Below, in pieces: positions 2,840 through 37,533 of a DNA stretch of 58,356 nt. This stretch comes from Nanobdellota archaeon. GTDB lineage: Archaea > Nanobdellota > Nanobdellia > Woesearchaeales > JAHWHD01. The DNA lies in NCBI GenBank assembly GCA_034722435.1, contig JAYENX010000058.1, positions 1-58,356 on the forward strand, written 5' to 3'. The position numbers and the translations under genes were made by a program. The first letter of the stretch is position 1; every line of letters begins with the position of its first letter. A model generated the notes under the pieces. The model saw only the letters and a list, made by a program, of their open reading frames with translations. It searched no databases and had not been told where the DNA came from.

Positions 2840-2942
2840 TTTAGGTAGAATTTATGAGAGGAGTTTATAAATCTTTCTTTGTATTTATAAATTGATTCAG
2901 CCAATAGAAACCTTTATTAAAAGTTGAAAAATGTTGAACAAC

Positions 2943-5900
2943 ATGGAATCTCTCGGTGTGTGCCTGGGTGCTTCAAGCATCAGCATTGTTAAACTTTCTA
3001 AGAATGAAAATGTAAAAGTTGAGAAAGTTATAGTCGTAGCTCATGAAGGAAATCCTAAAGCCGTATTTGAAAATGAAATTAAAAAATTTAAAAATATTGA
3101 TTCAATTGCAGTCACGGGAAGAAAGTTTAGAAAACTTGTCAATCTAAGTTCTATAACAGAACCTGAAGCAACAGAGATTGCTCTGGAATTTGTCAATAAA
3201 AATAGAGCAAGATATAATGCAATTGTTAGCGTCGGAGGGGAGACGTTCATGGTTTATGTTATTGATGAAGAAGGAAAGATTTCTTCAGTTCATACAGGTA
3301 ATAAATGTGCATCAGGTACAGGAGAATTCTTTTTGCAACAAATAAGAAGAATGGATTTATCGGCTGATGAGGCAATCAGCATGGCAAAAGGTGCAGAACC
3401 GCATAAAGTTGCAGGTAGATGTTCAGTTTTTTGTAAAAGCGATTGTACGCATGCATTAAATAAAGGTGAACCAAAAGGTAATGTCACTGCAGGACTTTGT
3501 GAAATGATGGCTAAAAAAGTGTCTGAGCTATTAGCTAAAGTTAATAATGAAAAAGTACTGTTAGTAGGGGGATCGTCCCAGAATTCTGTGATGGTTGATT
3601 TTCTTAAAAAAGATATTCCTGGATTGGTTGTGCCTGAAGAAGCAACATATTTTGAAGCACTAGGTACTGCATTATGGGCACTTGAAAATGAAACTAAAAA
3701 TATTTCAGAAGATTTATTTGTTGAAGGAAGTTCATCATTTGAGTTCTTGCCAAAACTTTCTGATTTTGAAGATATGGTAGAGTTCAAGAATATTGAGTCT
3801 GCAGATGCGGAAGATAGTGATGAATGCATCATAGGGCTCGATGTTGGTTCAACCACGACAAAAGCAATTCTTCTTAGAATTAAAGATGATGCAGTTCTTG
3901 GTTCAATATATTTACGAACAAAAGGGGATCCTGTAAAAGCTTCGCGTGAATGTTATGAAGCACTCCATGAACACATCAAAGGTGCTAAAGTAAATGTAAT
4001 AGGTTTAGGGGTGACAGGTTCAGGGAGACAAATTGCAGGGTTACATGCTTTAACAAAAGGAGTAATCAACGAAATTATAGCTCACGCAACTGCAGCAGTA
4101 TATTTTGATAAAGAAGTAGACACTATATTTGAAATAGGTGGGCAAGATGCCAAGTATACTTACATTACAAACGGGGTGCCATCAGACTATGCAATGAATG
4201 AAGCATGTTCGGCAGGTACAGGAAGTTTTCTGGAAGAAAGTGCGAAAGAGAGTTTAGGTATTGATGTAGAAAATATTGCAGAAAGTGCTTTGAAAGGTGA
4301 TAAACCCCCAAATTTCAATGATCAGTGTGCAGCATTCATAAGTTCAGATATTAAAAATGCAGGACAAGAAGGAATAAGTAAAGATAATATTATTGCGGGT
4401 TTAGTTTATTCTATAGGGATGAATTATGTTAACAGAGTAAAAGGGGCTAGACCTGTTGGAAAAAAGGTTTTCATGCAAGGAGGGGTTTGTTATAACAAAG
4501 CAGTTCCAATTGCAATGGCAGGATTAGTAGGTAAAAAAATAATAGTTCCACCCGAGCCTGGTTTAATGGGAGCTTTTGGAGTTGCATTAGTAATAAAACA
4601 AAAGTTAAACATCGAACTTATGGAAAAACAAATATTTGATTTAAAAGATTTAGCCGAAAGAGAAGTTGAGTATGGAAAAAGTTTTGTGTGCATGGGTGGA
4701 GAAGAAAAGTGTGACAGAAAATGTGAAGTCAACATGATAAAGGTAAAAGATAAATTGTATCCGTTCGGCGGTGCATGTAACAAGTATTATAATTTAAGGT
4801 TTGATATAAAAGTTGACAGCAATAAATTAGATCTTATAGATGTTAGACAAAGATTAGTTTTTGAAAAATATTGTCAAACTAACGGTCAAGGAAAAACTAT
4901 AGGTTTCAATAGATCGTTTCTTATGAATACTTTATACCCTTTATTTCATAACTTTTTTTCTGAACTTGGTATGAAAGTATTAATCTCAGATAAGTCAGTT
5001 CAAAAAGGAGTGGACAGGAAAGGTGCTGCTTTCTGTTATCCCGCAGAGATCGCTCACGGGTTATTTGAAGATATTTTGAATAAAAAACCTGATTACTTGT
5101 TTTTACCTTTAATAATTGAATTAAATGTTGGAAATGTAAATAATTATAAGAAAACCTGTCCGTTTATACAAGGAGAACCTTACTACTTAAGAAGTGCTTT
5201 TAAGGATAAATTGGGTGACAAAAAAATATTGAGTCCAGTCTTGAATTTTTCTAAAGGTTATAATAGTCAAGAAAAGGTCTTTATAAAAGTGGGTAAGGAA
5301 CTAGGATACAGTCCTGCAGATTGTTTGAAAGCATATAAAAAAGCAACAGAGATACAAAATGAATTCACAAAAGAGTGTAAAGAGATAGGAAAAAATGCTC
5401 TTGTTGAACTTGAGAAAGATCCAAATAAATTTGGAATGGTGATTTTTGGAAGACCGTATAACGCATTTGCATTCGAAGGAAATATGGGTATACCGCAAAA
5501 GTTCGCTTCAAGAGGAATTTTAGTTATACCTTATGATTTTCTCCCATATGAAAACGAAAAATGCGAAGACGGAATGTACTGGGCTATGGGCCAAATGATT
5601 TTGAAAGGTGCGTCATTTGTTAAAAGACATAAACAATTGTTCGGAACATTCATTACAAATTTTAGTTGCGGACCTGATTCTTTTGTTGTAGGATACTTTA
5701 GAGAATTGATGGGTGTCAAACCTTCTTTAACACTTGAACTTGATAGTCATACTGCAGATGCAGGAGTTAACACTAGAATAGAGGCAGTAATTGACATCAT
5801 AGAAAGTTATAGAGAATTATACAAAAGAGGTAAGATAAATGATGAAGATAAAAGTTTTGAAGAGTCTAAAATAGTTTATGATAAAGGGAAAGCTTATGTT

Positions 5901-7187
5901 ATAGATTCTAATGGATTAAGAGTAGCTTTAACAGATTCTAGAGTTAAAATGTATCTACCTTCAATGGATAGTTTAGGTTCTGTAGCACTCGCACACAGTC
6001 TAAAAAGTTTAGGCATTGATGCAGATTCATTACCAAGTTCAGATATGGACATACTGAAAAAAGGAAGAGGTAATACAACATGTAAAGAGTGCCTCCCTCT
6101 GCAACTAACAGTAGGAGGGCTTTTGAAACAAATAGAGGGTAAACCTAACAACCAAATAATTGTTTATTTTATGCCTGCATCTTCAGGCCCTTGCAGATTT
6201 GGACAATATAAGATTTTCATAGAAAATGTTTTGAAAAAAAATAAAATTAAAAATGTTGCACTTCTTTCGTTAACTGATCAAGATAGTTACGGAGGTTTTG
6301 GAAACAAGTTTACAATAATTGCGTGGAAAGCGATGATTGCGGCAGATGTTATGACCGACATTTTACACGCTATAAAAGCGTTGGCAATCGATAAGCATGG
6401 CGCTGAACAATTATTCTATAGAGAATGGGACAGAATTTTGAATTGTATAAGTTCCAAAGGTGATTTATACAAACAATTGAAAAGTGCTGCGAAAGTGTTG
6501 AAAAGAATCAAAATTAAAATAGATATTAAAGATGCAAAATTTGTAGCAATTATAGGAGAAATATATGTAAGAAGAGACGAATTATCGCGACAAGGGTTAA
6601 TTAAAAAATTGGCAGACAGAGGTTTTGTTGCGAAAGTAGCGCACATATCTGAATGGATATATTATACAAATTATATAGCTAAAAAAAGTTTAGGTGCAAG
6701 AGATAATGATTCTTTGAAGAAAAGGGCCGGGATATATTTAAGAGAATTTTTTCAAGACAAATTTGAAAATAAAATTAAAAATATACTTGCACAGAGCGGT
6801 CTTTATAGGTTTGAAAAAGAAGATATAGAAAAGACAATAAAGTATGGTTCTAAATTTGTTAATCCGCATTTTACAGGGGAAGCTTTGTTAACAGTCGGGT
6901 TAGCATTAAGAGAAGTTTTACATACTGCACATGGAGTTATTTCAATAGGTCCATTTGGTTGTATGCCTTCAAGAGTTTCTGAAGCGATTCTTACTGAAGA
7001 AATGAACATTGAAGGAAAACGGAAGGCTGCAGGAAATGTTAAAGATTTCGGAATTAAAGAGCTTCCTTTCTTAGCCATAGAAACAGACGGTAATGCATTC
7101 CCTCAATTAATAGAAGCTAGACTTGAAACGTTCTTTCTACAAGCTGATAGAGTATGGGAAAAAATGCAGAAATATAAAAATATTTAA
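2943..7187 (+). CDS. Fused 2-hydroxyacyl-CoA dehydratase activase (two BcrA/D-type ASKHA ATPase domains + DUF2229 + dehydratase-like C-terminus)
   Basis: GNKCASGTGEF, AGRCSVF, GLDVGSTTTK, EIGGQDAKY, MNEACSAGTGSF, FCYPAEIAHG, TNFSCGPDSF, CKECLPLQLTVG, GPFGCMP. Start 2943 is 22 nt from TTTATTAA; the ORF track start is 2931. Confidence 0.9.
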   Translation: MESLGVCLGASSISIVKLSKNENVKVEKVIVVAHEGNPKAVFENEIKKFKNIDSIAVTGRKFRKLVNLSSITEPEATEIALEFVNKNRARYNAIVSVGGETFMVYVIDEEGKISSVHTGNKCASGTGEFFLQQIRRMDLSADEAISMAKGAEPHKVAGRCSVFCKSDCTHALNKGEPKGNVTAGLCEMMAKKVSELLAKVNNEKVLLVGGSSQNSVMVDFLKKDIPGLVVPEEATYFEALGTALWALENETKNISEDLFVEGSSSFEFLPKLSDFEDMVEFKNIESADAEDSDECIIGLDVGSTTTKAILLRIKDDAVLGSIYLRTKGDPVKASRECYEALHEHIKGAKVNVIGLGVTGSGRQIAGLHALTKGVINEIIAHATAAVYFDKEVDTIFEIGGQDAKYTYITNGVPSDYAMNEACSAGTGSFLEESAKESLGIDVENIAESALKGDKPPNFNDQCAAFISSDIKNAGQEGISKDNIIAGLVYSIGMNYVNRVKGARPVGKKVFMQGGVCYNKAVPIAMAGLVGKKIIVPPEPGLMGAFGVALVIKQKLNIELMEKQIFDLKDLAEREVEYGKSFVCMGGEEKCDRKCEVNMIKVKDKLYPFGGACNKYYNLRFDIKVDSNKLDLIDVRQRLVFEKYCQTNGQGKTIGFNRSFLMNTLYPLFHNFFSELGMKVLISDKSVQKGVDRKGAAFCYPAEIAHGLFEDILNKKPDYLFLPLIIELNVGNVNNYKKTCPFIQGEPYYLRSAFKDKLGDKKILSPVLNFSKGYNSQEKVFIKVGKELGYSPADCLKAYKKATEIQNEFTKECKEIGKNALVELEKDPNKFGMVIFGRPYNAFAFEGNMGIPQKFASRGILVIPYDFLPYENEKCEDGMYWAMGQMILKGASFVKRHKQLFGTFITNFSCGPDSFVVGYFRELMGVKPSLTLELDSHTADAGVNTRIEAVIDIIESYRELYKRGKINDEDKSFEESKIVYDKGKAYVIDSNGLRVALTDSRVKMYLPSMDSLGSVALAHSLKSLGIDADSLPSSDMDILKKGRGNTTCKECLPLQLTVGGLLKQIEGKPNNQIIVYFMPASSGPCRFGQYKIFIENVLKKNKIKNVALLSLTDQDSYGGFGNKFTIIAWKAMIAADVMTDILHAIKALAIDKHGAEQLFYREWDRILNCISSKGDLYKQLKSAAKVLKRIKIKIDIKDAKFVAIIGEIYVRRDELSRQGLIKKLADRGFVAKVAHISEWIYYTNYIAKKSLGARDNDSLKKRAGIYLREFFQDKFENKIKNILAQSGLYRFEKEDIEKTIKYGSKFVNPHFTGEALLTVGLALREVLHTAHGVISIGPFGCMPSRVSEAILTEEMNIEGKRKAAGNVKDFGIKELPFLAIETDGNAFPQLIEARLETFFLQADRVWEKMQKYKNI

Positions 7188-7210: not shown

Positions 7211-8572
7211 ATGTTTAAATCAAAACTTTTACTTCATTATAAAAGGATAGAAATACAACAAGCCATGGTTGAAGCTGCAAAAAGTAGAGAGGTGGCTGTT
7301 AGCTATAATATGAAAGGTTATGGTAAAAGGCCTGATGTTCTAAATCATGCAAATGATGTTATGGAACTTGTTAAAGGAGGGGCAACAAGTTTTCATGTAT
7401 CTGAAGAAATATGGAGCAATCCTTTGCAAATAGATTCTAAGATGAGTAGAAAGGAGCTCGAGAATCTCAGAAAAGGTTGGGATTTGCTTTTAGATATTGA
7501 TTGTAAGTCTCTTGAATATTCTAAGATAACCGCAGATCTTTTAATAAAAGCTTTAAAGTATCATGACATAAAATGTATAAGTTGTAAGTTTTCAGGTAAT
7601 CATGGATTTCATATAGGAATCCCTTTTGAAGCTTTCCCTGATAAAGTACATAATAAAGAAACGCGAACTCTATTTCCTGAAGCGCCAAGATTTATTGCAG
7701 CATATCTTCAGAGTATGATTAAAGAGAAATTGGTTGAAAACCTGTTAAAGTTTGAAGATATAAACACGATTGCGGCAAAAACTGAGAAAACATATACTGA
7801 GATTATCAAAGATAACAAATTCGATCCATTTGAAGTAATAGATATAGATACTATCTTAATAGCGTCCAGGCACCTCTACAGAATGCCTTATTCTTTTAAT
7901 GAAAAATCTGGCTGGGTATCAATACCTATAGATCCAGATAAAGTTTTAGAGTTTGATGTTGAGACTGCTAAAGCTGAAAATGTGAAAATCTCAGAGTTTA
8001 AGTTTTTAGATGTAAACAAAGTAAGACCTAATGAAGCGCGACAATTAATTTTACAAGCGTACGATTTTAATCTTAAAAAAATAGATGAATATAAAGAAGA
8101 AAAACAGTCAAGATATGAAGATCTTCAAGAGGCAATTCCTGAACAGTTCTTCCCTCCATGTATTAAAAAAGTTTTAGAGGGTTTAGATGATGGTAAAAAA
8201 AGGGCAGTATTCATACTTATCAACTTTCTTTCATCAGTAGGCTGGGGATATGACGAGATAGAGAAAAGGCTTAAAGAGTGGAATAGCAGGAATAAAGACC
8301 CTCTTAAAGAGGTATATTTGTTAGGTCAAGCAAGATATGCTAAGCAGCACAAAAAAAAAATATTGCCACCAAACTGTAATAATAATATGTATTATAAGGA
8401 TCTGGCAATCTGTTTGCCTGACAATTTATGCGGGAAGGTTAAGAATCCTGTGAATTATGCGCGAAGAAAGACATTTTTCTTGAATAGAGAGAAGATGAAG
8501 GAGAAGAACAAGGCAAAGAAGAAAGCTGAAAAGAAAGAGAAAAATAAAAAGGAATCACAGAAGAAACAATAA
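7211..8572 (+). CDS. priSL: DPANN-type fused DNA primase (PriS catalytic domain + PriL C-terminal Fe-S domain)
   Basis: WDLLLDID and SGNHGFHI (PriS), followed by FPPCIKK...PPNC...AICLPDNLC (PriL-CTD cysteines) in one ORF. Confidence 0.92.
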   Translation: MFKSKLLLHYKRIEIQQAMVEAAKSREVAVSYNMKGYGKRPDVLNHANDVMELVKGGATSFHVSEEIWSNPLQIDSKMSRKELENLRKGWDLLLDIDCKSLEYSKITADLLIKALKYHDIKCISCKFSGNHGFHIGIPFEAFPDKVHNKETRTLFPEAPRFIAAYLQSMIKEKLVENLLKFEDINTIAAKTEKTYTEIIKDNKFDPFEVIDIDTILIASRHLYRMPYSFNEKSGWVSIPIDPDKVLEFDVETAKAENVKISEFKFLDVNKVRPNEARQLILQAYDFNLKKIDEYKEEKQSRYEDLQEAIPEQFFPPCIKKVLEGLDDGKKRAVFILINFLSSVGWGYDEIEKRLKEWNSRNKDPLKEVYLLGQARYAKQHKKKILPPNCNNNMYYKDLAICLPDNLCGKVKNPVNYARRKTFFLNREKMKEKNKAKKKAEKKEKNKKESQKKQ

Positions 8573-25877: not shown

Positions 25878-27401
25878 TTATTTCAACCAATATTTTATTT
25901 CTCTTAATTGTTTTAAATCGTTTTTATATAATTCTCTTATATCATTAATTTTGAAATATTCAAGAATAATTCTATCAAAACCGGGTCCCCATGCAAGAAT
26001 CGGAACGAATTTTCCAAGTAAAGGTTCAACCACTTCAGGTCTAAAGATGCCCGCCCCGCCTAACTCCATCCAAGTTTCACGTACAGGGTGCCAGACATCG
26101 ATTTCGACGCTAGGTTCAGTATAAGGGAAGTGTGCAGGTCTGAATCGTGCATCAGGAAATCCCATTTGTTTGAAAAATTGTTTAAGGTATCCGAGAAGAT
26201 GTCTAAAGTTAGCATTAGGATCAATGACTATTCCTTCTGTTTGATTAAATTCGAATAAATGTGACCAATCCATTGTTTCATTCCTAAAACATCGTCCAAG
26301 AGCAAAAAACTTTGCAGGAAGGTCAGATTCTTTTAGCATCGCAATTGTTTGTGCACTAAGTACAGTTGTATGAGTTCTTAATACATTTTTTTTTGCAGGA
26401 TCAGGTTGCCAAGAATAACGCCAACCTATACTTCCCGAACTTCCAGATTCGTGGGATTTTTTAACCTTATTAACCATTTTCTTATTTGGAAGATTACCTT
26501 TAACATCCACAAAGAAAGTGTCTTGCATTTCTCTAACAGGATGATCTTGAGCAGTGAATAAAGAATCAAAATTCCAAAAACTAGTATTAACGAAAGTTCC
26601 GGTCATTTCTTTAAAACCCATATTAAGCCAGATTTTTTTAGCATAGTCTGTTGCAACTTTCACAAAATGTCGTTTCCCTCCTGAAACTTTAGGAACATTA
26701 ATCTCAACATCATAACGTCTGAAAGATTTATTTTTCCATGAACCGGAAGAAAGCATTTTAGGAGTGAGCGAATCTATAACTTTTGTATCGATTTTTTCTT
26801 TTGAAAGTTTATTCCCTAAATTTGTTAAAATAGCTGTTTTTGTTTTAATTAAATCTACTTTAACAATATCTTTTCTTGACTTAAGATTATCGTAAGCGAA
26901 TTTCTCTTCAGGTGATAAAGATGATTCTTCTTTTGGTAAAGACTTTAATAGTTTTTCCTCAAAAGTCTGTTTAGAAAGTAATTTTTTACCCGGAGGAGTA
27001 ATTGAAATTAATAAATTTTTATCTTCTTTTTTAATATCTATTGCAGCTTTCTTTTTTAATATACCAATACAGATGTTAACTTCAGATTTATCTATAGAAG
27101 ATTTCTTAATAATTTCATTAATCTTTTGAGGATTTTCTGAAAGTGATTTCAAGAAACGTAATTCAGGAAGTCCTTGATCTAAATATTTATGACCATTTTT
27201 ATCTAAATCGACTACTTTTTGTATATCTTCTTTAAGGTTTATAGCGTTTTTATTCTGTAACCATTGAAGCGCTCTCATAACCTCGACATCTTTCAATCCT
27301 GAATGTTTAACAAGCTGGTTAAAATCTGAATATTTAGAGAGAAGAGGGACTACTTTTCTTTCTAAAGGATGCAATGTCTGAGCTAGCTTTTTGATATCCA
27401 T
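25878..27401 (-). CDS. pheS: Phenylalanine-tRNA ligase alpha subunit (archaeal type)
   Basis: WNFDSLF.AQDHP.REMQDTF, LRTHTT, FPYTEPS, WMELGGAG. Confidence 0.98.
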   Translation of the reverse strand: MDIKKLAQTLHPLERKVVPLLSKYSDFNQLVKHSGLKDVEVMRALQWLQNKNAINLKEDIQKVVDLDKNGHKYLDQGLPELRFLKSLSENPQKINEIIKKSSIDKSEVNICIGILKKKAAIDIKKEDKNLLISITPPGKKLLSKQTFEEKLLKSLPKEESSLSPEEKFAYDNLKSRKDIVKVDLIKTKTAILTNLGNKLSKEKIDTKVIDSLTPKMLSSGSWKNKSFRRYDVEINVPKVSGGKRHFVKVATDYAKKIWLNMGFKEMTGTFVNTSFWNFDSLFTAQDHPVREMQDTFFVDVKGNLPNKKMVNKVKKSHESGSSGSIGWRYSWQPDPAKKNVLRTHTTVLSAQTIAMLKESDLPAKFFALGRCFRNETMDWSHLFEFNQTEGIVIDPNANFRHLLGYLKQFFKQMGFPDARFRPAHFPYTEPSVEIDVWHPVRETWMELGGAGIFRPEVVEPLLGKFVPILAWGPGFDRIILEYFKINDIRELYKNDLKQLREIKYWLK

Positions 27402-29507: not shown

Positions 29508-29526
29508 GCACTAAAAAAGAAAAAGA

Positions 29527-29538
29527 TTTATATATAAA
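29527..29538. promoter_or_regulatory. Palindromic TATA element shared by divergent pelota and pilin-like genes
   Basis: TTTATATATAAA, a 12-bp palindrome. The minus-strand TATA is 23 nt from the pelota ATG; the plus gene has AGGTGAT before ATG 29576. Confidence 0.65.
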
Positions 29539-29575
29539 GGTATTTATTTTACTATTAAAAAATAGGTGATAATCC

Positions 29576-31297
29576 ATGGATTTTAGAATATTCGCTAGAG
29601 GTAAAAAGGGTGAGGTGGCTCCAGAAATAAGTGCTTCTGCAGCTGCTACTTTAATTGCTATTATAGGTATATCAATTGTACTGTATATTGTTCTAATTCC
29701 ACCAGAAGCTAGACAAGAAATTTTAGGTGATAAACCTTATACGGCCTTACCAGGTCAAGAAAGTCTTAGTAATGAAATTGTGGAAAGAGAATTAATTAAT
29801 AAAACTCTCGTGCTGGAAAATATTGGAGAAGTTGATTATATTAAACAATCCGAAATTGAACATTCTATACCTGCAATGAATCTTTATACGCGGACTGCGG
29901 GAAGCGCTATAAGAGAAGTAAATTCATTATATATGAAAAACACTTTATTTTCTGAAGAATTTAAGTCTATAGAATTTCAGTTAAAAGATGTACACAACAC
30001 TGAAAATGTTTTGCTTAATTTTCTAGTAAAAGAAGGATCTGGAAGGTTGATTATAAAATTAAATGGGTTCGAAATATTCAATAATGAAATTGATACAATC
30101 AATATAAGACCTATTGAAATAAGTAAAGATATTTTACGAAATGATAATGTACTTGATTTTGAGGTTGAAAATCCAAGTTTCTTATTTTGGAAAGTTAATG
30201 AATATAGTCTAGAAAAAATAACAGTTACAGGAGATTTAACGGATGTTAGTAAAAGAGAGGCATCAGGATTATTTTATGTTGAGCCTGAAGAAAAAAGTAA
30301 TGCTGAAAAAGTAACACTTAACTTTTATCCTGATTGTGATGTCAGAAAAGTTGGAAGAATTAAAGTATCTCTTAACCAAAGAGAAATATACACAGGAATA
30401 CCTGATTGTAACATGTTGAACAAACAAGAGTTTCCACCAGAATATTTAGTAACAGGAAATAATGTTGTTAGTATGTTCGCAGAAAGCGGAGATTATTATG
30501 TTGACAATATCAAGGTAGATGTAGAACTTGAAGAACCTGATAATTACATTTTCTATTTTAATCTGGATGAAGATTATTTTAATGCATTAACAAGTAAAGA
30601 TCCTATATGCGGTGAAGTCGATAATATATGTCCTGATGATTGTGATGCAGATCTTGATAAAGATTGTTGCTTTGAAGCGAGTAGTAAGAATTTCTGGTGT
30701 GATATTGCAACAAGTGAAACTGATGATAGATGTGTAGGTGTGGTAACCTACGATAGATGTAAACTTTGTTCAAGCGGATATGAAGAAAAAGATGGCGATA
30801 TAGCCAAATCATGTAAAAATCTTTGCGGAGATGACAAAGATGGAATTTGTCCAATAGGTTGCACTAATTACGTTGATAAAGATTGTTGTCATACTAAATC
30901 TACGAATTATTGGTGTGAAGACGTTCCAAGAGAGACAGGAGTTCAAGGAGTTTGCAGAGATACTGTTTCTCAAGATGAATGCGAATATTGCCCCGAAGGT
31001 TACAAAAATAAAAATGGTGAAAGTCCAGGATGTCCTTCGAAATCCGATACAGAAATTGAAGATTATAAATTGAAAAGTAAATATGATGTTGATCTTAATT
31101 TAAAATTTGTCCACGATAATGAAGAAAAAGAAGGTGAGCTCATCATCAACAGTCATAAATTTTTCTTTGATACCAGAGATAATTTGTATAGTAGACAACT
31201 AGATCAATTTTTAGAACCTAATTTTAATTCAATACAATTAATACCTAAATCAAGCTTGAATATTGTTGAATTAGAAGTTAAACTAAAAGAGAGGTGA
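29576..31297 (+). CDS. Class III signal peptide (pilin-like) surface protein with two 10-Cys repeats
   Basis: RGKKG|EVAPE followed by a hydrophobic helix; beta-rich body; Cys-rich repeats at 30608-31036. Confidence 0.75.
   Translation: MDFRIFARGKKGEVAPEISASAAATLIAIIGISIVLYIVLIPPEARQEILGDKPYTALPGQESLSNEIVERELINKTLVLENIGEVDYIKQSEIEHSIPAMNLYTRTAGSAIREVNSLYMKNTLFSEEFKSIEFQLKDVHNTENVLLNFLVKEGSGRLIIKLNGFEIFNNEIDTINIRPIEISKDILRNDNVLDFEVENPSFLFWKVNEYSLEKITVTGDLTDVSKREASGLFYVEPEEKSNAEKVTLNFYPDCDVRKVGRIKVSLNQREIYTGIPDCNMLNKQEFPPEYLVTGNNVVSMFAESGDYYVDNIKVDVELEEPDNYIFYFNLDEDYFNALTSKDPICGEVDNICPDDCDADLDKDCCFEASSKNFWCDIATSETDDRCVGVVTYDRCKLCSSGYEEKDGDIAKSCKNLCGDDKDGICPIGCTNYVDKDCCHTKSTNYWCEDVPRETGVQGVCRDTVSQDECEYCPEGYKNKNGESPGCPSKSDTEIEDYKLKSKYDVDLNLKFVHDNEEKEGELIINSHKFFFDTRDNLYSRQLDQFLEPNFNSIQLIPKSSLNIVELEVKLKER
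30608..31036 (+). repeat. Two tandem ~72-aa protein repeats with 10 Cys each
   Basis: Pattern CG-x-D-x-ICP-xx-C-xxxx-DKDCC-...-WC-...-C-...-CxxC-xx-GY-...-C, starting at codons 30608 and 30824. Confidence 0.9.
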
Positions 31298-31312
31298 TTT
31301 TTTCTTTTTTTT
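31298..31312 (+). terminator. Oligo-T archaeal terminator-like tract
   Basis: T6-C-T8 immediately after the stop codon. Confidence 0.5.
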
Positions 31313-31323
31313 GAATAATTAAA

Positions 31324-33702
31324 ATGGTAATTGAGTATGCTAAAGCAATCGCTGGCGCTTTAAACCAGTTTGCAAATCCTTTAAGTCAAAGCAATAAACA
31401 AGCGGGCACTACAGGACCTATGTTTGCCATATTGTTTACCATTGTACTATATTATTTCTTACCATATGACCAAAGTATAATTATATCCGTAGTTTTAAAC
31501 ATGACAGTATTTCTATTTTTTATAAGAGGGTTTAGAAAATGGATATATGGCATAGCACTATTTCAGTTGTTTGTACATTATATGATTGGACAGATGAATG
31601 CCGTTCCATTCGCGTTTAATTTGAACGTTATAATTGCTCAGTTCATTATTTGGCCAATATGGCCCATCTTTGGAGTAATTGTTTTTATGGGGGCGTGTCA
31701 AAATGCAGAAAATAGAGGTATCTCATTACCGCCTCTTTCTAACATGTTCAGAATTTTTGTTATCATGATTATAATAGCCATGTTTGTATCTCATTTTTAT
31801 ACACAATTTTATGTACCTATCCCATCTGAAAGATTGCAAGAAGCCAGGGAGTTCAGTCTAAAAACGTGGAACTATATCAACACTAATCTTGGTAATGCGT
31901 TAAAGATTGTTAGGTTTACATTTTCTTGCTGGATGGAGCAAATATACCTTGAACAGAAAACGGATATAGATTCGTGCGTGAAAGAGAAGATGAGCCCCAG
32001 TGATAATGAAACTATCCAGGGAGGAACAGATAAAACTATACAAGAAATTGTGAAAGCAGATTTAAGGTCTCCGCCTTATCTTACAAACGAGCTAGGAACT
32101 GAAGAGGCTTTTGAAGTTGGAGCAGTACTTGACGTATTTAACCCAAAAAAAGAAAAGTTAGATATTGAGGTTAAATGTAAAATTAAAAATGATAGACAGA
32201 GTGAAATTCCTTCAAAAATAACAGGAACTCAAGGAAATGTTGATACTTCCGGAAAAATTGTAACTTATAAAAATGTTGATAGACTTTATTCTGATCTTAT
32301 ATGTATGCCAGAATTAACACCTAATTTAGCTAAAGGATTTTATACAGTTACTTTTGAAGCTACAATAAAAAATGTTGCAACCCAGGCAAAATTAGTAAAC
32401 CTTTTCATGGCGAGAGATGCGTTAACTAGTCTTATAACGGATTATGCAAAAGAAAGAAAGATTAGTGTAACATCTAAAACTGAAGCTAGCGTTATGCGAG
32501 CAATATTCCCAGGGTTAGTGGCAACTTATTATAAAGGGGGTAAGGTTGAATCAAAAGCTGAAGAAAGTTTTCTTAAACCTATGCTAGAAACGCGAAATGT
32601 TCCAATAATAGGATATATTGCAGATGATGAAAGAAGTACAATGGGTCTTAAAGTAGGTGTACAGAATATGGCAAAAGGAACACCAGGAAAAGCTACAATC
32701 TCATTTACGCTCCCTGACGATATGAAGATTGTCCCAAGCGAGTGTAAAGAATACAAGCTTAAAGAAGGAACCACCAATGTTTATGAATATAAAGCAAGAA
32801 TTTCTCTTGATAAATTGAAGTATAATGCTCAACCAACTGCATTACCGAGATGTTTTGTTAGTATAAGCAATCTTAAAACAATAAATCCTAATGTGCCTGA
32901 ACCAAGAACATTTGTAGTTGATTTAGTATACGATTATACTTTAAAGAAAGAATTAATTGTAAAAGTTAAAAGTTATGGGTATGAAGGTTTAACTGCAGTT
33001 ACCTTACCAAGTGTTGAATGGAAAAAATGTCAAGGAGTTTTTCCTTTAAATGTGACAGATATTAAGAGAAGTACGATTAATGAATGTGGCAGAGATTCTG
33101 ATGGAGGTACTGTTAAATTTGATACTTTTATGAAATATTATAAACAAAATGGTCTTGACCAGATTGAAGAGTTAGATGAATTATTGTTATTATCTCTTGC
33201 TCATGTAGAGACAGGATGTGAGCCAAGTCCAGGGAATAAAGAGGGAATAATGCAAGTTCCTCAACAAACCTCAACTGATAATCTTGACGGAATTGAAAAT
33301 ATGGATCGAGCTATTGATTTGGGAAGTAAAGAGATAAAAACTAGATTCGATGATGTTAAAAAATTAGGTTATTCTGGAGAGGATGCAATCAAGTTGGCGC
33401 TTTATGGATATAATAGAGGTAAAGGTTCTATGGATCTTGCTGTAGAATTTATGAAAACAGGTAAAGGAGTAAATGAAGCTATGCTTCTTGCTTGTTATGA
33501 TAAATATGATGCTGGTGGTTATTTGAATAAAGTAACTGGGAAGACTTGTTCAGGTTTTGATAGAAATGCTTGTTGTGGTGCGCCAGGAACTGAAAATGGA
33601 AAGTTCCATTCAGGAGAAGGTCTTGGAGCAAGATATCCTGAAAAGGTCATTAATAAGTATAAAGATGCGTGCGGGTCAACGCCTGGTGGAAGTTTAGCAT
33701 GA
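31324..33702 (+). CDS. Multi-pass membrane-anchored surface protein with C-terminal soluble lytic transglycosylase (SLT/GH23 lysozyme-like) domain
   Basis: About 4-5 hydrophobic segments in the first ~160 aa. SLT motifs in order: LLLSLAHVET (E629), GIMQV (641-645), ALYGYNRG (Y696-G699), YPEKV. Confidence 0.82.
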   Translation: MVIEYAKAIAGALNQFANPLSQSNKQAGTTGPMFAILFTIVLYYFLPYDQSIIISVVLNMTVFLFFIRGFRKWIYGIALFQLFVHYMIGQMNAVPFAFNLNVIIAQFIIWPIWPIFGVIVFMGACQNAENRGISLPPLSNMFRIFVIMIIIAMFVSHFYTQFYVPIPSERLQEAREFSLKTWNYINTNLGNALKIVRFTFSCWMEQIYLEQKTDIDSCVKEKMSPSDNETIQGGTDKTIQEIVKADLRSPPYLTNELGTEEAFEVGAVLDVFNPKKEKLDIEVKCKIKNDRQSEIPSKITGTQGNVDTSGKIVTYKNVDRLYSDLICMPELTPNLAKGFYTVTFEATIKNVATQAKLVNLFMARDALTSLITDYAKERKISVTSKTEASVMRAIFPGLVATYYKGGKVESKAEESFLKPMLETRNVPIIGYIADDERSTMGLKVGVQNMAKGTPGKATISFTLPDDMKIVPSECKEYKLKEGTTNVYEYKARISLDKLKYNAQPTALPRCFVSISNLKTINPNVPEPRTFVVDLVYDYTLKKELIVKVKSYGYEGLTAVTLPSVEWKKCQGVFPLNVTDIKRSTINECGRDSDGGTVKFDTFMKYYKQNGLDQIEELDELLLLSLAHVETGCEPSPGNKEGIMQVPQQTSTDNLDGIENMDRAIDLGSKEIKTRFDDVKKLGYSGEDAIKLALYGYNRGKGSMDLAVEFMKTGKGVNEAMLLACYDKYDAGGYLNKVTGKTCSGFDRNACCGAPGTENGKFHSGEGLGARYPEKVINKYKDACGSTPGGSLA

Positions 33703-34655
33703 AAAAAATAAATTTAATTCTTTCTTTAGTACTAATTTTATTGGTTTTAGTTAGTTGTACAGGGACTAAACTTGCAGGTGTTGAAACCGTAATATACAAA
33801 GGAACTGATGGATTAAGAATGGACATTTTAGAAGGTCTTCCACCAAAAGAAATGTATGTCGGAACAAAAGAGAGTCCGGCGTATTTACAAATAGGTATCG
33901 AGCTCGAAAATCAAGGTGCTTATGATATTACAGAAGGAGTTCTAGCAATCAGTTACGATAGAAAATTTAATGATTTAAGTCAGACGTCAGTTGATACATT
34001 TAACTTAAGAGGGCGAAGTCAACTTACACCCATAGGAGATATAACACGAAAGACGTTCACAGTTAAAAATTATGGATTACCTCCAGGAAGTAAAAGTGTA
34101 TTCGTTATTAGCGGATGTTATAAATATGAAACTACAGCTACTGTCGATGTATGTATAAGTCCTTATTATAGTCCTCTTGTTAAAGTTGGTGAAGATGTGT
34201 GTAAGGCAAAAGATTTTACTAACATTAAATTATCAGGGGGACAAGGGGGGCCTGTAGCTATAACAAATGTAAGAGAAAGTATAAGGCCAACTGAACATGA
34301 TCTAGTTGAGATTGTTTTTGCAATAACTCTCGATAATTTCGGTGACGGTAACGTAAGATCTGAAGAAAATTATGATAAAGAATGTAGAGAGGGTGCTGAA
34401 TCTCTGAGTATCAAAGATATTAAAACTGCACGAATTAAAGAAATATCGTTCTCAGATTATAGTCTAGCTAATAACAGAATTGAATGTTATCCTAAAGAGT
34501 TAAGAGTTGGAGAAAAAACAATAATCTGTTCTGCTAAGATTGATAAAAGAGTTGTGAAATCTCCATATCTAACACCATTAAAAATAAAAATAGGATATGG
34601 ATATGTCTCTCGAGAATATCCTGTAATTAACTTTAAAGAAAGGACTGAGATATAG
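33699..34655 (+). CDS. Lipoprotein-like secreted beta-sandwich protein, paralog 1
   Basis: Signal ending LVSC; YKGTDGL, GGQGGPVAIT, GYGY. ATGA overlap with the SLT gene. Confidence 0.75.
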   Translation: MKKINLILSLVLILLVLVSCTGTKLAGVETVIYKGTDGLRMDILEGLPPKEMYVGTKESPAYLQIGIELENQGAYDITEGVLAISYDRKFNDLSQTSVDTFNLRGRSQLTPIGDITRKTFTVKNYGLPPGSKSVFVISGCYKYETTATVDVCISPYYSPLVKVGEDVCKAKDFTNIKLSGGQGGPVAITNVRESIRPTEHDLVEIVFAITLDNFGDGNVRSEENYDKECREGAESLSIKDIKTARIKEISFSDYSLANNRIECYPKELRVGEKTIICSAKIDKRVVKSPYLTPLKIKIGYGYVSREYPVINFKERTEI

Positions 34656-34695
34656 CCGAAAAACTTATATAATCAATAGAGTGTTTATATATAAA

Positions 34696-35613
34696 ATGAT
34701 AGAAAAGAAGAGTCTATTAATAATTGTATCTTTGTTATTTATAATTCTTATTTCTGCTTGTACAGGTAATCAACAAACAAAACCTGGACTTGAAGAAGAT
34801 TTATACACCGGCACGCAAGGACTTGAGATTAGACTTTTACCAAATGCTCCGCCTGCAAAATTGTTTGCCACACCAAGAACGCAACTTAATTTTATAGTAG
34901 AATTAAGAAACAGAGGAGTTTTTGAAACTTCAGGCCTTTTATTCTTGGGAGGATATGATCCCAATATAATTCCCATAAGAGATTATGCTAAAGATTTTGG
35001 ACCTATTGAAGGAAAAACAGAGTATAATCGTGAAGGAGGATTTCAAACAGTAGATTATCAAGCTTTAGGGATTTTTATGCCAGAAGGTCTTGACAGATTA
35101 AATCAGCCTTTTTCTTTAACTGCAATTTATGATTATGAAACTCTCGCCACAGGAGTTGTATGTATAGATCCTAATCCATATGCACCAGTACAACCTACAA
35201 TTCAAACTTGTATTCCTCAAGATATCACCATGGGAGGAGGACAAGGCGCACCTGTAGCTGTAAGTCTTGTAGAAGTTCAATCTACTGGTGAAAAGGTATT
35301 TTTTAAGATACACGTTACAAATGTAGGGGATGGAAGTGTTGTTTTAGTGGGTGAACGTGATCCTTTCGCAGTAAGGGATGATATTGAACGAATAAATAAA
35401 ATATTCTATGAAGTGACCCTTTCAGGATTATATGGAGAATGTAAACCGGCAAATCCATTAAGGATAGTAAATGAAAGAGGAATAATATTTTGTGAATTCC
35501 CTATACCATTTGAACAAAAAGATCCTTACCAAACAACTTTAAAAGTAAGACTTAGCTATGGATATGTTAGCGAATTAATAACAAATGTACAATTAGTTAA
35601 AACACCAAAATAG
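34696..35613 (+). CDS. Lipoprotein-like secreted beta-sandwich protein, paralog 2
   Basis: Signal ending ISAC; YTGTQGL, GGQGAPVAVS, SYGY. Confidence 0.75.
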   Translation: MIEKKSLLIIVSLLFIILISACTGNQQTKPGLEEDLYTGTQGLEIRLLPNAPPAKLFATPRTQLNFIVELRNRGVFETSGLLFLGGYDPNIIPIRDYAKDFGPIEGKTEYNREGGFQTVDYQALGIFMPEGLDRLNQPFSLTAIYDYETLATGVVCIDPNPYAPVQPTIQTCIPQDITMGGGQGAPVAVSLVEVQSTGEKVFFKIHVTNVGDGSVVLVGERDPFAVRDDIERINKIFYEVTLSGLYGECKPANPLRIVNERGIIFCEFPIPFEQKDPYQTTLKVRLSYGYVSELITNVQLVKTPK

Positions 35614-35628
35614 GAGGATTAAGTTAAA

Positions 35629-36543
35629 ATGAATAAAAAATTAATAGTTCTGATTTCAATTATGATTATTCTAATATTAACAGTAGGTTGTAAACCAAAT
35701 GAAGAGGCACCTATTGGAGAAACAGTATACAAAGGAGGGTCTCAAGGTTTAGTTGCAACATTTGAACCTTTCGGGATTCAAGAAGGGGGAGTGTATACAA
35801 TATTCGATACAGAAACATTCCCAATCGAAGTTTTGGTACAAAATAAAGGTGAACAAGATATAGAAATTGGAGATGCGAAAGTTATTTTAAAAGGGATTAG
35901 TGTTAATGATTTTGAAGGTATTGCAAGTTCTGATTTAACTAACACTGACAAAATTGAAAAAGTTTCAGAGTTTAATCCATTAGGAGGAGAAGTAAGGATT
36001 GATTTTACTCCAAGTAGTGATGCGAAGTATAATCTTGACGTAGTAGGTTTTACCAGTGTTGATGTCTTTGCAGCTTACGAATATCTTTACAAAACTAATG
36101 TAATTGCGCCTAAAGTTTGTTTTAAAGAAGATTTAAGAGATACTTCAATTTGTAATGTAGACGAAGCAAAAGAATTTTCTGTAAGTTCTGCACCAATTAC
36201 GGTTACAAGTGTTGAAGAAGCATCTGCCGGAAAAGGTATAATAGCTTTAGTTTTTACAATTTCAAATGTGGGCGGAGGTAAAGTTACACTCCCGGGAGAA
36301 GATTTTGATGTAAGGTATGGAAGAGTTAGATACGAAATTGATGAGCCTGAAAAATGGGAATGTAAAGCTGCAGGTCTAGAAAATGAAGCTAGGCTAGTAG
36401 ATGGTCAAGCACAAATAAGGTGTAGATTAAACACTCCTTTAGAAGAAGATAGTCTTTATACCAGACAAGTTTCGTTGGCTCTAGAATATAAGTATCAAAG
36501 TATAATCCAAGATACTATCAAGATAAAAGAAAGTCAAGAATAA
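35629..36543 (+). CDS. Lipoprotein-like secreted beta-sandwich protein, paralog 3
   Basis: Signal ending TVGC; YKGGSQGL, SSAPITVT, EYKY. Confidence 0.75.
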   Translation: MNKKLIVLISIMIILILTVGCKPNEEAPIGETVYKGGSQGLVATFEPFGIQEGGVYTIFDTETFPIEVLVQNKGEQDIEIGDAKVILKGISVNDFEGIASSDLTNTDKIEKVSEFNPLGGEVRIDFTPSSDAKYNLDVVGFTSVDVFAAYEYLYKTNVIAPKVCFKEDLRDTSICNVDEAKEFSVSSAPITVTSVEEASAGKGIIALVFTISNVGGGKVTLPGEDFDVRYGRVRYEIDEPEKWECKAAGLENEARLVDGQAQIRCRLNTPLEEDSLYTRQVSLALEYKYQSIIQDTIKIKESQE

Positions 36544-36573
36544 TTTATTTATTTTTTCTTAATATTTTTATAT

Positions 36574-37533
36574 TCATTCTGAACCTAAAAGGACAGCATA
36601 AGCAAGAAGAGCTTCCAACTGAATAAATTCGTCACTTCCTTCAACCATTCTAAATTCAATATCTCCGCATTTACTAATAAATTTAACTTTTTTTCTGCCA
36701 TCAATTTCAAGATTCCATATCTCTTTTTGGATTTGTTTAATCACATCTAAACCTGAAAGTCCGTGGTTAAGCATGACATCAAGAAGTTTGTTTCTTGCAA
36801 TCATAAAATTGTTTTTAATAGCTAATTCTAACACTTCTTTAAGCTCTTTAGGTTTAGCGGCGGAAGCCATATTATAAATTACATCTTCGTCTATTTTTTG
36901 CGAAATTACTGCGGAACTTTGAAGAATGTTTTCAATACGTCGACAGTCTCCATTTGAAATTTGAAAAAGTGCTTCTTTTGCTTCAGGATTTATATCGAGA
37001 GATTCCTTTTGAGCAATATGATCTACCAATTCAAGTATTTCTTCTTTAGATAGTAACTTAAACCTAAAAACTGCACATCTGCTTTGAATCGGATCAATAA
37101 TTTTTGATGAAAAATTACAAGAAAGTATAAAACGACAAGTTTGAGTATAATTTTCCATCGTACGTCTTAATGCCTGCTGCGCTTCTTTAGTCAGAGCATC
37201 GCATTCGTCAAGGTATATTATTTTAAAAGGTACATTTCCTATTGCCCGAGTTCTTGCAAAATCTTTGACATTATTCCTAATAATATCTATACCTCTTTGA
37301 TCGGAAGCGTTCAGTTCTAAGAAGTTATTTCTCCAAGAGTCTCCAAACAATTCTCTTGCCACGATAAGAGATAAAGTGGTCTTACCTACTCCTGCAGGTC
37401 CTGCAAACATAAGGTGTGGCATATTTTTTTGTTCAACAAAGGCACGTATTCTTTTAACAATATGTTTTTGGCCTTTCATCTCTTCAAATGTTTTTGGTCT
37501 ATATTTCTCAGTCCAAATAGAAGATTCTGACAT
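36574..37533 (-). CDS. rfcS: Replication factor C small subunit
   Basis: WTEKYRP, GPAGVGKTT, ELNASD, LDECD, SRC motif. Confidence 0.98.
   Translation of the reverse strand: MSESSIWTEKYRPKTFEEMKGQKHIVKRIRAFVEQKNMPHLMFAGPAGVGKTTLSLIVARELFGDSWRNNFLELNASDQRGIDIIRNNVKDFARTRAIGNVPFKIIYLDECDALTKEAQQALRRTMENYTQTCRFILSCNFSSKIIDPIQSRCAVFRFKLLSKEEILELVDHIAQKESLDINPEAKEALFQISNGDCRRIENILQSSAVISQKIDEDVIYNMASAAKPKELKEVLELAIKNNFMIARNKLLDVMLNHGLSGLDVIKQIQKEIWNLEIDGRKKVKFISKCGDIEFRMVEGSDEFIQLEALLAYAVLLGSE

Follow-up and report, generated by a model that had tools for sequence, protein, structure and literature searches.

The stretch of DNA analysed here, the window, is contig C58 (58,356 nt) of a 1.3-Mb archaeal genome of 94.5% completeness, and the closest named relative of the window is annotated as Candidatus Woesearchaeota. 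Between the genes for pelota (eRF1_1/2/3) and the small subunit of replication factor C (RFC; rfcS), both on the minus strand, lie five co-oriented genes, g1-g5 (Table 1), which an earlier note on this DNA had described as export-bound products: a pilin-like protein with Cys repeats, a membrane-anchored lytic transglycosylase and three paralogous lipoproteins, together forming a contact apparatus directed at cell walls. All five open reading frames (ORFs) lie where the note had placed them, and each product bears an anchor, transmembrane helices or a lipobox, as expected of exported proteins; the ATGA at 33699-33702, in which the g2 stop overlaps the g3 start and which the note had read as coupling the two genes, is likewise present.

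Table 1. Genes, protein regions and candidate expression signals of the g1-g5 cluster, in window coordinates
Feature	Position	Strand	Details
g1	29576-31297	+	573 amino acids (aa)
g1 insertion, two tandem ~70-aa repeats	30608-31033	+	residues 345-486, 10 Cys per repeat
g2	31324-33702	+	792 aa
g2 ectodomain	32011-32982	+	residues 230-553, pLDDT >90, two beta-sandwich domains (model)
g2 linker	32986-33111	+	residues 555-596, pLDDT <50, probably flexible
SLT/GH23 lytic transglycosylase-like domain	33115-33513	+	g2 residues 598-730
g3	33699-34655	+	lipobox LVSC, paralogue A
g4	34696-35613	+	lipobox ISAC, paralogue B
g5	35629-36543	+	lipobox TVGC, paralogue C
TATA-like box TTTATATATAAA	29527-29538	+	divergent pelota/g1 intergenic region; read from sequence, putative promoter
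Shine-Dalgarno-like AGGTGA	29564-29569	+	upstream of g1
T-tract TTTTTTCTTTTTTTT	31298-31312	+	15 nt, right behind g1 stop, 12 nt before g2 ATG
TATA-like CTTATATAAT	34664-34673	+	~28 nt upstream of g4 ATG 34696
GGAGG	35613-35617	+	upstream of g5
T-rich stretch	36544-36574	+	downstream of g5, convergent with rfcS

Based on the agreement of motifs, profile and modelled fold, the C-terminus of g2 is assigned as a real SLT/GH23 domain, through which the protein would cleave murein, and the lytic transglycosylase of the earlier note is thereby upheld. The candidate catalytic Glu629 (codon 33208-33210) together with Thr630 fits the E-S/T motif of the family and is followed by GIMQV (641-645) and YGYNRG (694-699), the Glu, Gly, Gln and Tyr being invariant over nine aligned g2-type C-terminal domains. 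A profile of the SLT C-terminal domains matches MltC (3.5e-13), Slt70 (2.7e-8) and MltE (8e-8), and also g-type lysozymes. The modelled fold is nearest to MltC (VIA: Z 9.6, root-mean-square deviation 3.1, 119 residues), followed by MltF (Z 9.2), a putative Tn916-like cell wall hydrolase (Z 9.2) and Slt (Z 9.1); all four best VIA matches are thus murein hydrolases, at moderate Z and for a model with a pLDDT of 65-91. Scaffolds of the g2 type in other families pass the Pfam SLT model with 47.1, 54.1 and 34.9 bits. Searched as a single sequence, the SLT region found no transglycosylase among PDB sequences, and the whole-genome Pfam SLT scan missed g2.

The muralytic domain is, as judged from sequence comparison, an optional and exchangeable C-terminal addition to a conserved scaffold. 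Alignments of g2 diverge after residue ~553, and beyond the linker the type of domain switches: a 57%-identical orthologue carries GH73 (glucosaminidase) in the place of the window's SLT domain, and 11 of 20 homologues from other families end in a peptidoglycan hydrolase domain (6 SLT, 3 Peptidase_M23, 1 Amidase_2, 1 GH73), nine of these domains scoring above the Pfam cut-off (SLT four times, M23 three times, Amidase_2 and GH73 once each). The remaining 9 of the 20 are without a recognised C-terminal domain, and short g2 forms that have no C-terminal domain at all exist. The four hydrolase classes cleave different bonds, and bacterial murein is the sole substrate common to them. Their repeated swapping at one site is a stronger sign of selection for wall cleavage than a match to one domain could be.

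The scaffold that carries these enzymes was delineated from an AlphaFold2 (AF2) model, hydropathy and alignments, according to which a short cytoplasmic N-terminus is followed by ~5 transmembrane helices (30-162), a long stalk helix, the ectodomain, the linker and the C-terminal SLT domain. The charge distribution follows the positive-inside pattern of an N-in topology, with positive charges in the loop 67-71; taken together with the five helices it places the ectodomain outside, where it would be displayed at the cell surface. Residues 364-402 of the ectodomain are modelled as a helical insert, residues 519-527 make up a conserved loop (NPNVPEPRT), and four of its Cys are invariant. Foldseek with the full g2 model gave Ig-like (immunoglobulin-like) matches only, the SLT fold becoming visible with VIA-align; a shape search of the ESM Atlas with the ectodomain led to ~300-aa archaeal clusters (TM 0.67 and 0.63), and the g2 alignment brought up no new homologues in a word-index search, which was swamped.

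The g2 ectodomain appears to have the fold of the lipoproteins encoded downstream, an idea present in the earlier note as a module common to the SLT protein and the three lipoproteins. The relationship escapes BLASTP, which finds nothing between g2 and g3, and a four-sequence g2 profile likewise found nothing among the lipoproteins; it is borne out by a 32-sequence profile, in which g2 residues 438-553 align with domain 2 of the lipoproteins (hhalign E 2e-4, probability 46%, 101 columns), and by fold comparison, namely the Atlas matches just given and a PDB match list of the g2 ectodomain that is the same generic set as that of g4. The AF2 model of g4 (pLDDT 93.5, pTM 0.84) comprises two beta-sandwich domains, and its PDB matches are generic Ig/MG-like structures with Z <8.

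Paralogy of the putative lipoproteins is confirmed by BLASTP (g3-g4, 4e-27; g4-g5, 5e-10; g3-g5, 0.02), and in each of them a lipobox of the pattern [LVI][ASTVI][GAS]C ends the N-terminal hydrophobic segment. In related genomes g3, g4 and g5 each have an orthologue of their own, which argues that the triplication is old. A profile search matched the representatives of 2724 clusters built at 50% identity, 827 with E-values below 1e-30, and among the matches listed 122 of 150 family representatives have a lipobox; no Pfam or NCBIfam model covers the family. Of the 301 genomes sampled from the phylum, 266 contain it, a tally that took in the unpublished genomes G001, G264 and G265, on which no single claim depends; genomes of the same order mostly have three copies, those of the rest of the class one or two. 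AliA lipidation machinery has been reported from DPANN archaea in general (PMC12462473). In a related family (L013, 6568-7863, minus strand) the first lipoprotein is 431 aa long owing to an insertion of ~110 aa, for which Pfam holds no match. A reading of this insertion as an SH3 domain, and of longer lipoproteins as bearing wall-binding domains, was rejected, ten sequences giving no Pfam match.

The g1 product is a single-pass membrane protein with one N-terminal hydrophobic anchor (residues 24-42) and a conserved extracellular core of ~390 aa. A search of 151 genomes from the phylum recovered it in 144, as a single-copy gene and with E-values reaching 1e-150. We found no relative of it in Pfam, NCBIfam or the solved structures of the PDB and detected no similarity to the lipoproteins; a fold search of the Atlas gave weak jelly-roll leads (of the carbohydrate-binding module, BcsB and GH2 type) below useful scores. 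The Cys repeats described in the earlier note are real, two 10-Cys units (345-413 and 417-486) that align with a score of 141 as compared to 37 +/- 7 in shuffles. Alignment shows most g1 orthologues (~390-410 aa) to be without this insertion, and several other families also have long forms (547-607 aa). The label pilin-like finds no support. A canonical type IV pilin was considered and rejected, for the class III cleavage motif is absent (KKG and then EVAPEISAS precede the hydrophobic stretch); the KG motif is not kept among orthologues, that of L015 having no KG at all. The conserved neighbourhood of the cluster holds no type IV pilus ATPase, platform protein or prepilin peptidase, and the Peptidase_A24 and T2SSE ATPase genes of this genome lie on other contigs (C36, C59, C8).

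A physical association is predicted between the products of g2 and g3, the gene translationally coupled to it. Complex prediction with our own alignments covered the g2 ectodomain, g3 and g4, and the pair of g2 ectodomain and g3 attained an ipSAE of 0.70, whereas the best of three controls gave 0.01; of 80 solved complexes 58 attained the mark, and of 110 mismatched pairs 2 did so, counts that apply here only approximately because our own alignments were used. At least 89% of the contacts are common to the runs, with a partner pLDDT of at least 84, and swapping out g3 abolished the complex score. In the predicted interface a conserved g2 loop (519-529) and the helical insert pack against g3, suggesting that the ectodomain docks directly onto this lipoprotein. 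No confident g4 contacts were listed in the g2/g3/g4 prediction, a result uninformative either way. We know of no solved complex resembling g2-g3. The multi-subunit structure envisaged by the earlier note thus gains one predicted contact, while its role as a contact apparatus would still be conjecture.

Gene order and conservation show how widely this arrangement is shared. The order of g1, g2 and lipoprotein genes adjoining pelota and rfcS is kept in relatives at 67%, 57% and 41% identity and recurs in other families (L013, L014, L015), and the coordinates of g1, g2 and the lipoproteins are adjacent across many families and genomes. The prevalence of g1 together with its E-values makes the cluster a core feature of the group. 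On present sequence evidence it is a near-universal core operon of the order and class, not a lineage-specific weapon, and the description of the locus as a special insert among housekeeping genes is to be given up, although the linkage on which the earlier note had staked its claim does hold in relatives.

The collective evidence leads us to think it fairly probable that g1-g5 encode a conserved surface complex on which many lineages present a murein hydrolase, tethered and open to exchange, to the walls of bacteria. The five products would make up a cell-envelope complex conserved in Woesearchaeota-type DPANN archaea. In it, g2 would serve as a five-helix membrane scaffold whose ectodomain, having the same fold as the lipid-anchored g3-g5, docks onto g3, and g1 would be a single-pass partner with a large and very conserved extracellular part. 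In the lineage of the window, the flexible linker of ~40 residues would carry the lytic transglycosylase outward from the scaffold; in other lineages the same position would be occupied by a glucosaminidase, an M23 endopeptidase or a MurNAc-L-Ala (N-acetylmuramoyl-L-alanine) amidase, or by nothing. The tethered enzyme would most likely act on bacteria in contact with the archaeal surface, cutting their peptidoglycan, and the outcome could be a local opening of the wall for attachment or access, or the release of muropeptides near the cell. That the target would be foreign murein follows from the lack of genes for murein synthesis: no Mur ligase, penicillin-binding protein (PBP) transpeptidase or FtsW/RodA (SEDS) protein was found in the 94.5% complete genome by searches that were positive in bacterial controls. 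Bacterial walls as the target, proposed already in the earlier note, are thus plausible and strengthened by the swapping of four enzyme classes; the idea as such had been published, and cell contact would be a further step of inference. The same genome encodes two further Peptidase_M23 domains (G000:C22:20208-20459 and 25975-26280; L047, L048), in ORFs of 2055 aa and 187 aa that are candidate wall hydrolases outside the operon.

Several observations weigh against the displayed-hydrolase complex just described. About half of the g2 homologues examined have no recognisable hydrolase, so that a role independent of murein cleavage has to be assumed for the core complex. The window's own SLT domain attains 15.6 bits (E 0.012) with the Pfam SLT model (PF01464), under the cut-off of 21.3 bits, and it bears a Cys-rich insert and a disordered tail. 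In some families the operon is split, g1-g2 and the lipoprotein triad being ~30 kb apart or on different contigs (e.g., f45, in which g1 lies ~30 kb from the triad in G137:C3, G147:C3 and G153:C1). Finally, the docking of g2 onto g3 comes from a model limited to g2, g3 and g4.

A broader form of this interpretation would have Woesearchaeota-type DPANN archaea contact their hosts, or feed, generally through the g1-g5 complex, the last module of g2 being suited in each lineage to the envelope of its partner: the four murein hydrolases would then indicate bacterial partners, and another module, or none, would indicate partners of another kind. We regard this as an unlikely, if attractive, generalisation. 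If it were true, the type of host could be predicted from the g2 domain type throughout a phylum that is uncultured.

To a similarly low degree we credit a structural role, in which the lipoproteins, the g2 ectodomain and g1 would build a coat, a lattice similar to a surface layer (S-layer) or lying beneath one, and the surface-displayed hydrolases would draw amino sugars and amino acids from the digestion of free wall debris, in the absence of any cell-cell contact. Archaeal S-layer proteins typically contain Ig-like beta-sandwich domains (10.1101/2023.10.27.564410), a structural lattice would fit the near-universal presence and the fixed set of three paralogues, and the membrane tether would hold digestion products near the cell. 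However, candidate DPANN S-layer proteins are ~1000 aa long and fast-evolving (10.1101/2023.10.27.564410), whereas g1 and the lipoproteins are strongly conserved over families. S-layer proteins form the outermost two-dimensional lattice, are very abundant and usually diverge fast between genera; the modelled fold in the cluster is Ig-like, and sequence conservation over families is unusually high. Scavenging is disfavoured by the search for AnmK (anhydromuropeptide recycling), which gave nothing above the cut-off.

Somewhat less credible again is the notion that the core complex has no relation to bacteria, functioning in envelope biogenesis, transport or lipid uptake, and that horizontally acquired hydrolases were fused to the outward C-terminus of g2 as antibacterial or defensive weapons. 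It would account for the many genomes in which the complex occurs with a g2 devoid of hydrolase, for a g1 too conserved for a host-recognition protein and for the M23 candidates located outside the cluster. Yet the fusion of four hydrolase classes at one site of the scaffold is hard to explain without a functional link to a wall-facing surface, and no transporter-like fold was recognised in g2, the transmembrane part of which is modelled with low confidence.

That the hydrolase remodels a murein-like wall of the archaeon itself, in the manner of an autolysin, is very improbable: bacterial membrane-bound lytic transglycosylases do exactly this, but the absence of the murein synthesis genes noted above largely refutes it here. 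A prophage or mobile-element cassette for lysis or entry, to which the exchange of hydrolase domains typical of phage lysins could have pointed, has practically no standing, refuted as it is by the fixed chromosomal site between housekeeping genes across many families, a GC content equal to that of the surroundings and a vertical, near-universal distribution.

Regarding known systems, the displayed hydrolase that we favour for g2 has analogies to several. It resembles the bacterial family-1 lytic transglycosylases (MltC, MltE/EmtA, Slt70; SLT, GH23) in the catalytic Glu with the Ser/Thr that follows, in counterparts of the GLMQ and AYNxG motifs and in the predicted goose-lysozyme-like helical fold, and it is membrane-tethered as the Mlt enzymes are. 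It differs from them in belonging to an archaeon without murein, in being fused behind a five-helix transmembrane scaffold and an Ig-like ectodomain, and in an SLT domain that falls below the Pfam cut-off with its extra Cys-rich insert and tail. VirB1 of type IV secretion and EtgA of type III secretion are specialised lytic transglycosylases of envelope-spanning machines. Like them, g2 would be a wall-cutting enzyme tied genetically to a multi-subunit envelope structure; unlike them, it has no secretion ATPase, channel or pilus genes in or beside its cluster and would cut the wall of another cell. Phage endolysins and tail lysins show the same modular shuffling of glycosidase, amidase and endopeptidase domains, but g2 is chromosomal, vertically inherited and membrane-anchored, with no phage genes nearby. 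Related in biological context are the fam00969 proteins of Woesearchaeota and Pacearchaeota (PMC8204110) and the GH23 genes (PMC9723730), which, like g2, represent outward GH23 domains in DPANN archaea and were taken as a sign of bacterial interaction. These are stand-alone giants of up to 3000 aa, whereas the g2 enzyme forms a small module at the end of a conserved scaffold, within a near-universal operon, and is interchangeable with three other hydrolase classes. The halobacterial Woldo and Danwoldo (PMC12352652) are soluble, secreted through the twin-arginine (Tat) pathway and equipped with known PG_binding_1 domains, as opposed to g2, in which the constant module is a subunit of a membrane complex and belongs to an unknown family. 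The survey behind them reported diverse peptidoglycan hydrolases in Nanoarchaeota and demanded a known wall-binding domain (PMC12352652), and proteins of the g2 type would therefore have been missed.

Our study has importance in placing the enzyme on a fixed site of a conserved and uncharacterised membrane complex, as compared to the stand-alone hydrolase genes noted before. Outward murein transglycosylase domains in Woesearchaeota and Pacearchaeota, and with them the idea of bacterial hosts or prey, are already published (PMC8204110, PMC9723730, PMC11537232); the scaffold, the operon and the swapping of enzymes are new within the literature searched, in which we found no description of them. 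Three large families, namely g1, the g2 core and the lipoproteins, are present in most genomes of the group and yet are without a Pfam model. The variety of hydrolases at one spot points to dealings with bacteria and is not proof of them, and the scaffold, its predicted partner and the interface loop provide testable material. To our knowledge, no host of any Woesearchaeota is known and DPANN life on bacteria is an open question.

Lastly, the expression signals and the surroundings of the cluster may be considered. The divergent spacer between pelota and g1 measures 68 nt (29508-29575), and its A/T-rich TATA-like element could be one promoter for both genes. The T-tract that the earlier note had located after g1 is present and is possibly a partial archaeal terminator; the internal TATA it had suspected near 34660 is found as the TATA-like element upstream of g4, possibly an internal promoter giving a leaderless g4-g5 transcript. 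For g4 the ORF finder proposes GTG 34681 as the start, and ATG 34696 is the better match both to the orthologues and to a leaderless distance from this element. Neighbours of the cluster comprise, besides pelota and RFC, genes for TrmB, PheRS, a PRC-barrel protein, a Cas4-like nuclease and TyrRS. Elsewhere in the window, a 453-aa protein (7211-8572, plus strand) matches the family of the small DNA primase subunit as well as that of the large one and is therefore a fused PriS-PriL primase, and a protein of 1418 aa (2931-7187, plus strand), large for so small a genome, has BcrAD_BadFG ATPase and DUF2229 domains of the CoA-enzyme activase type.

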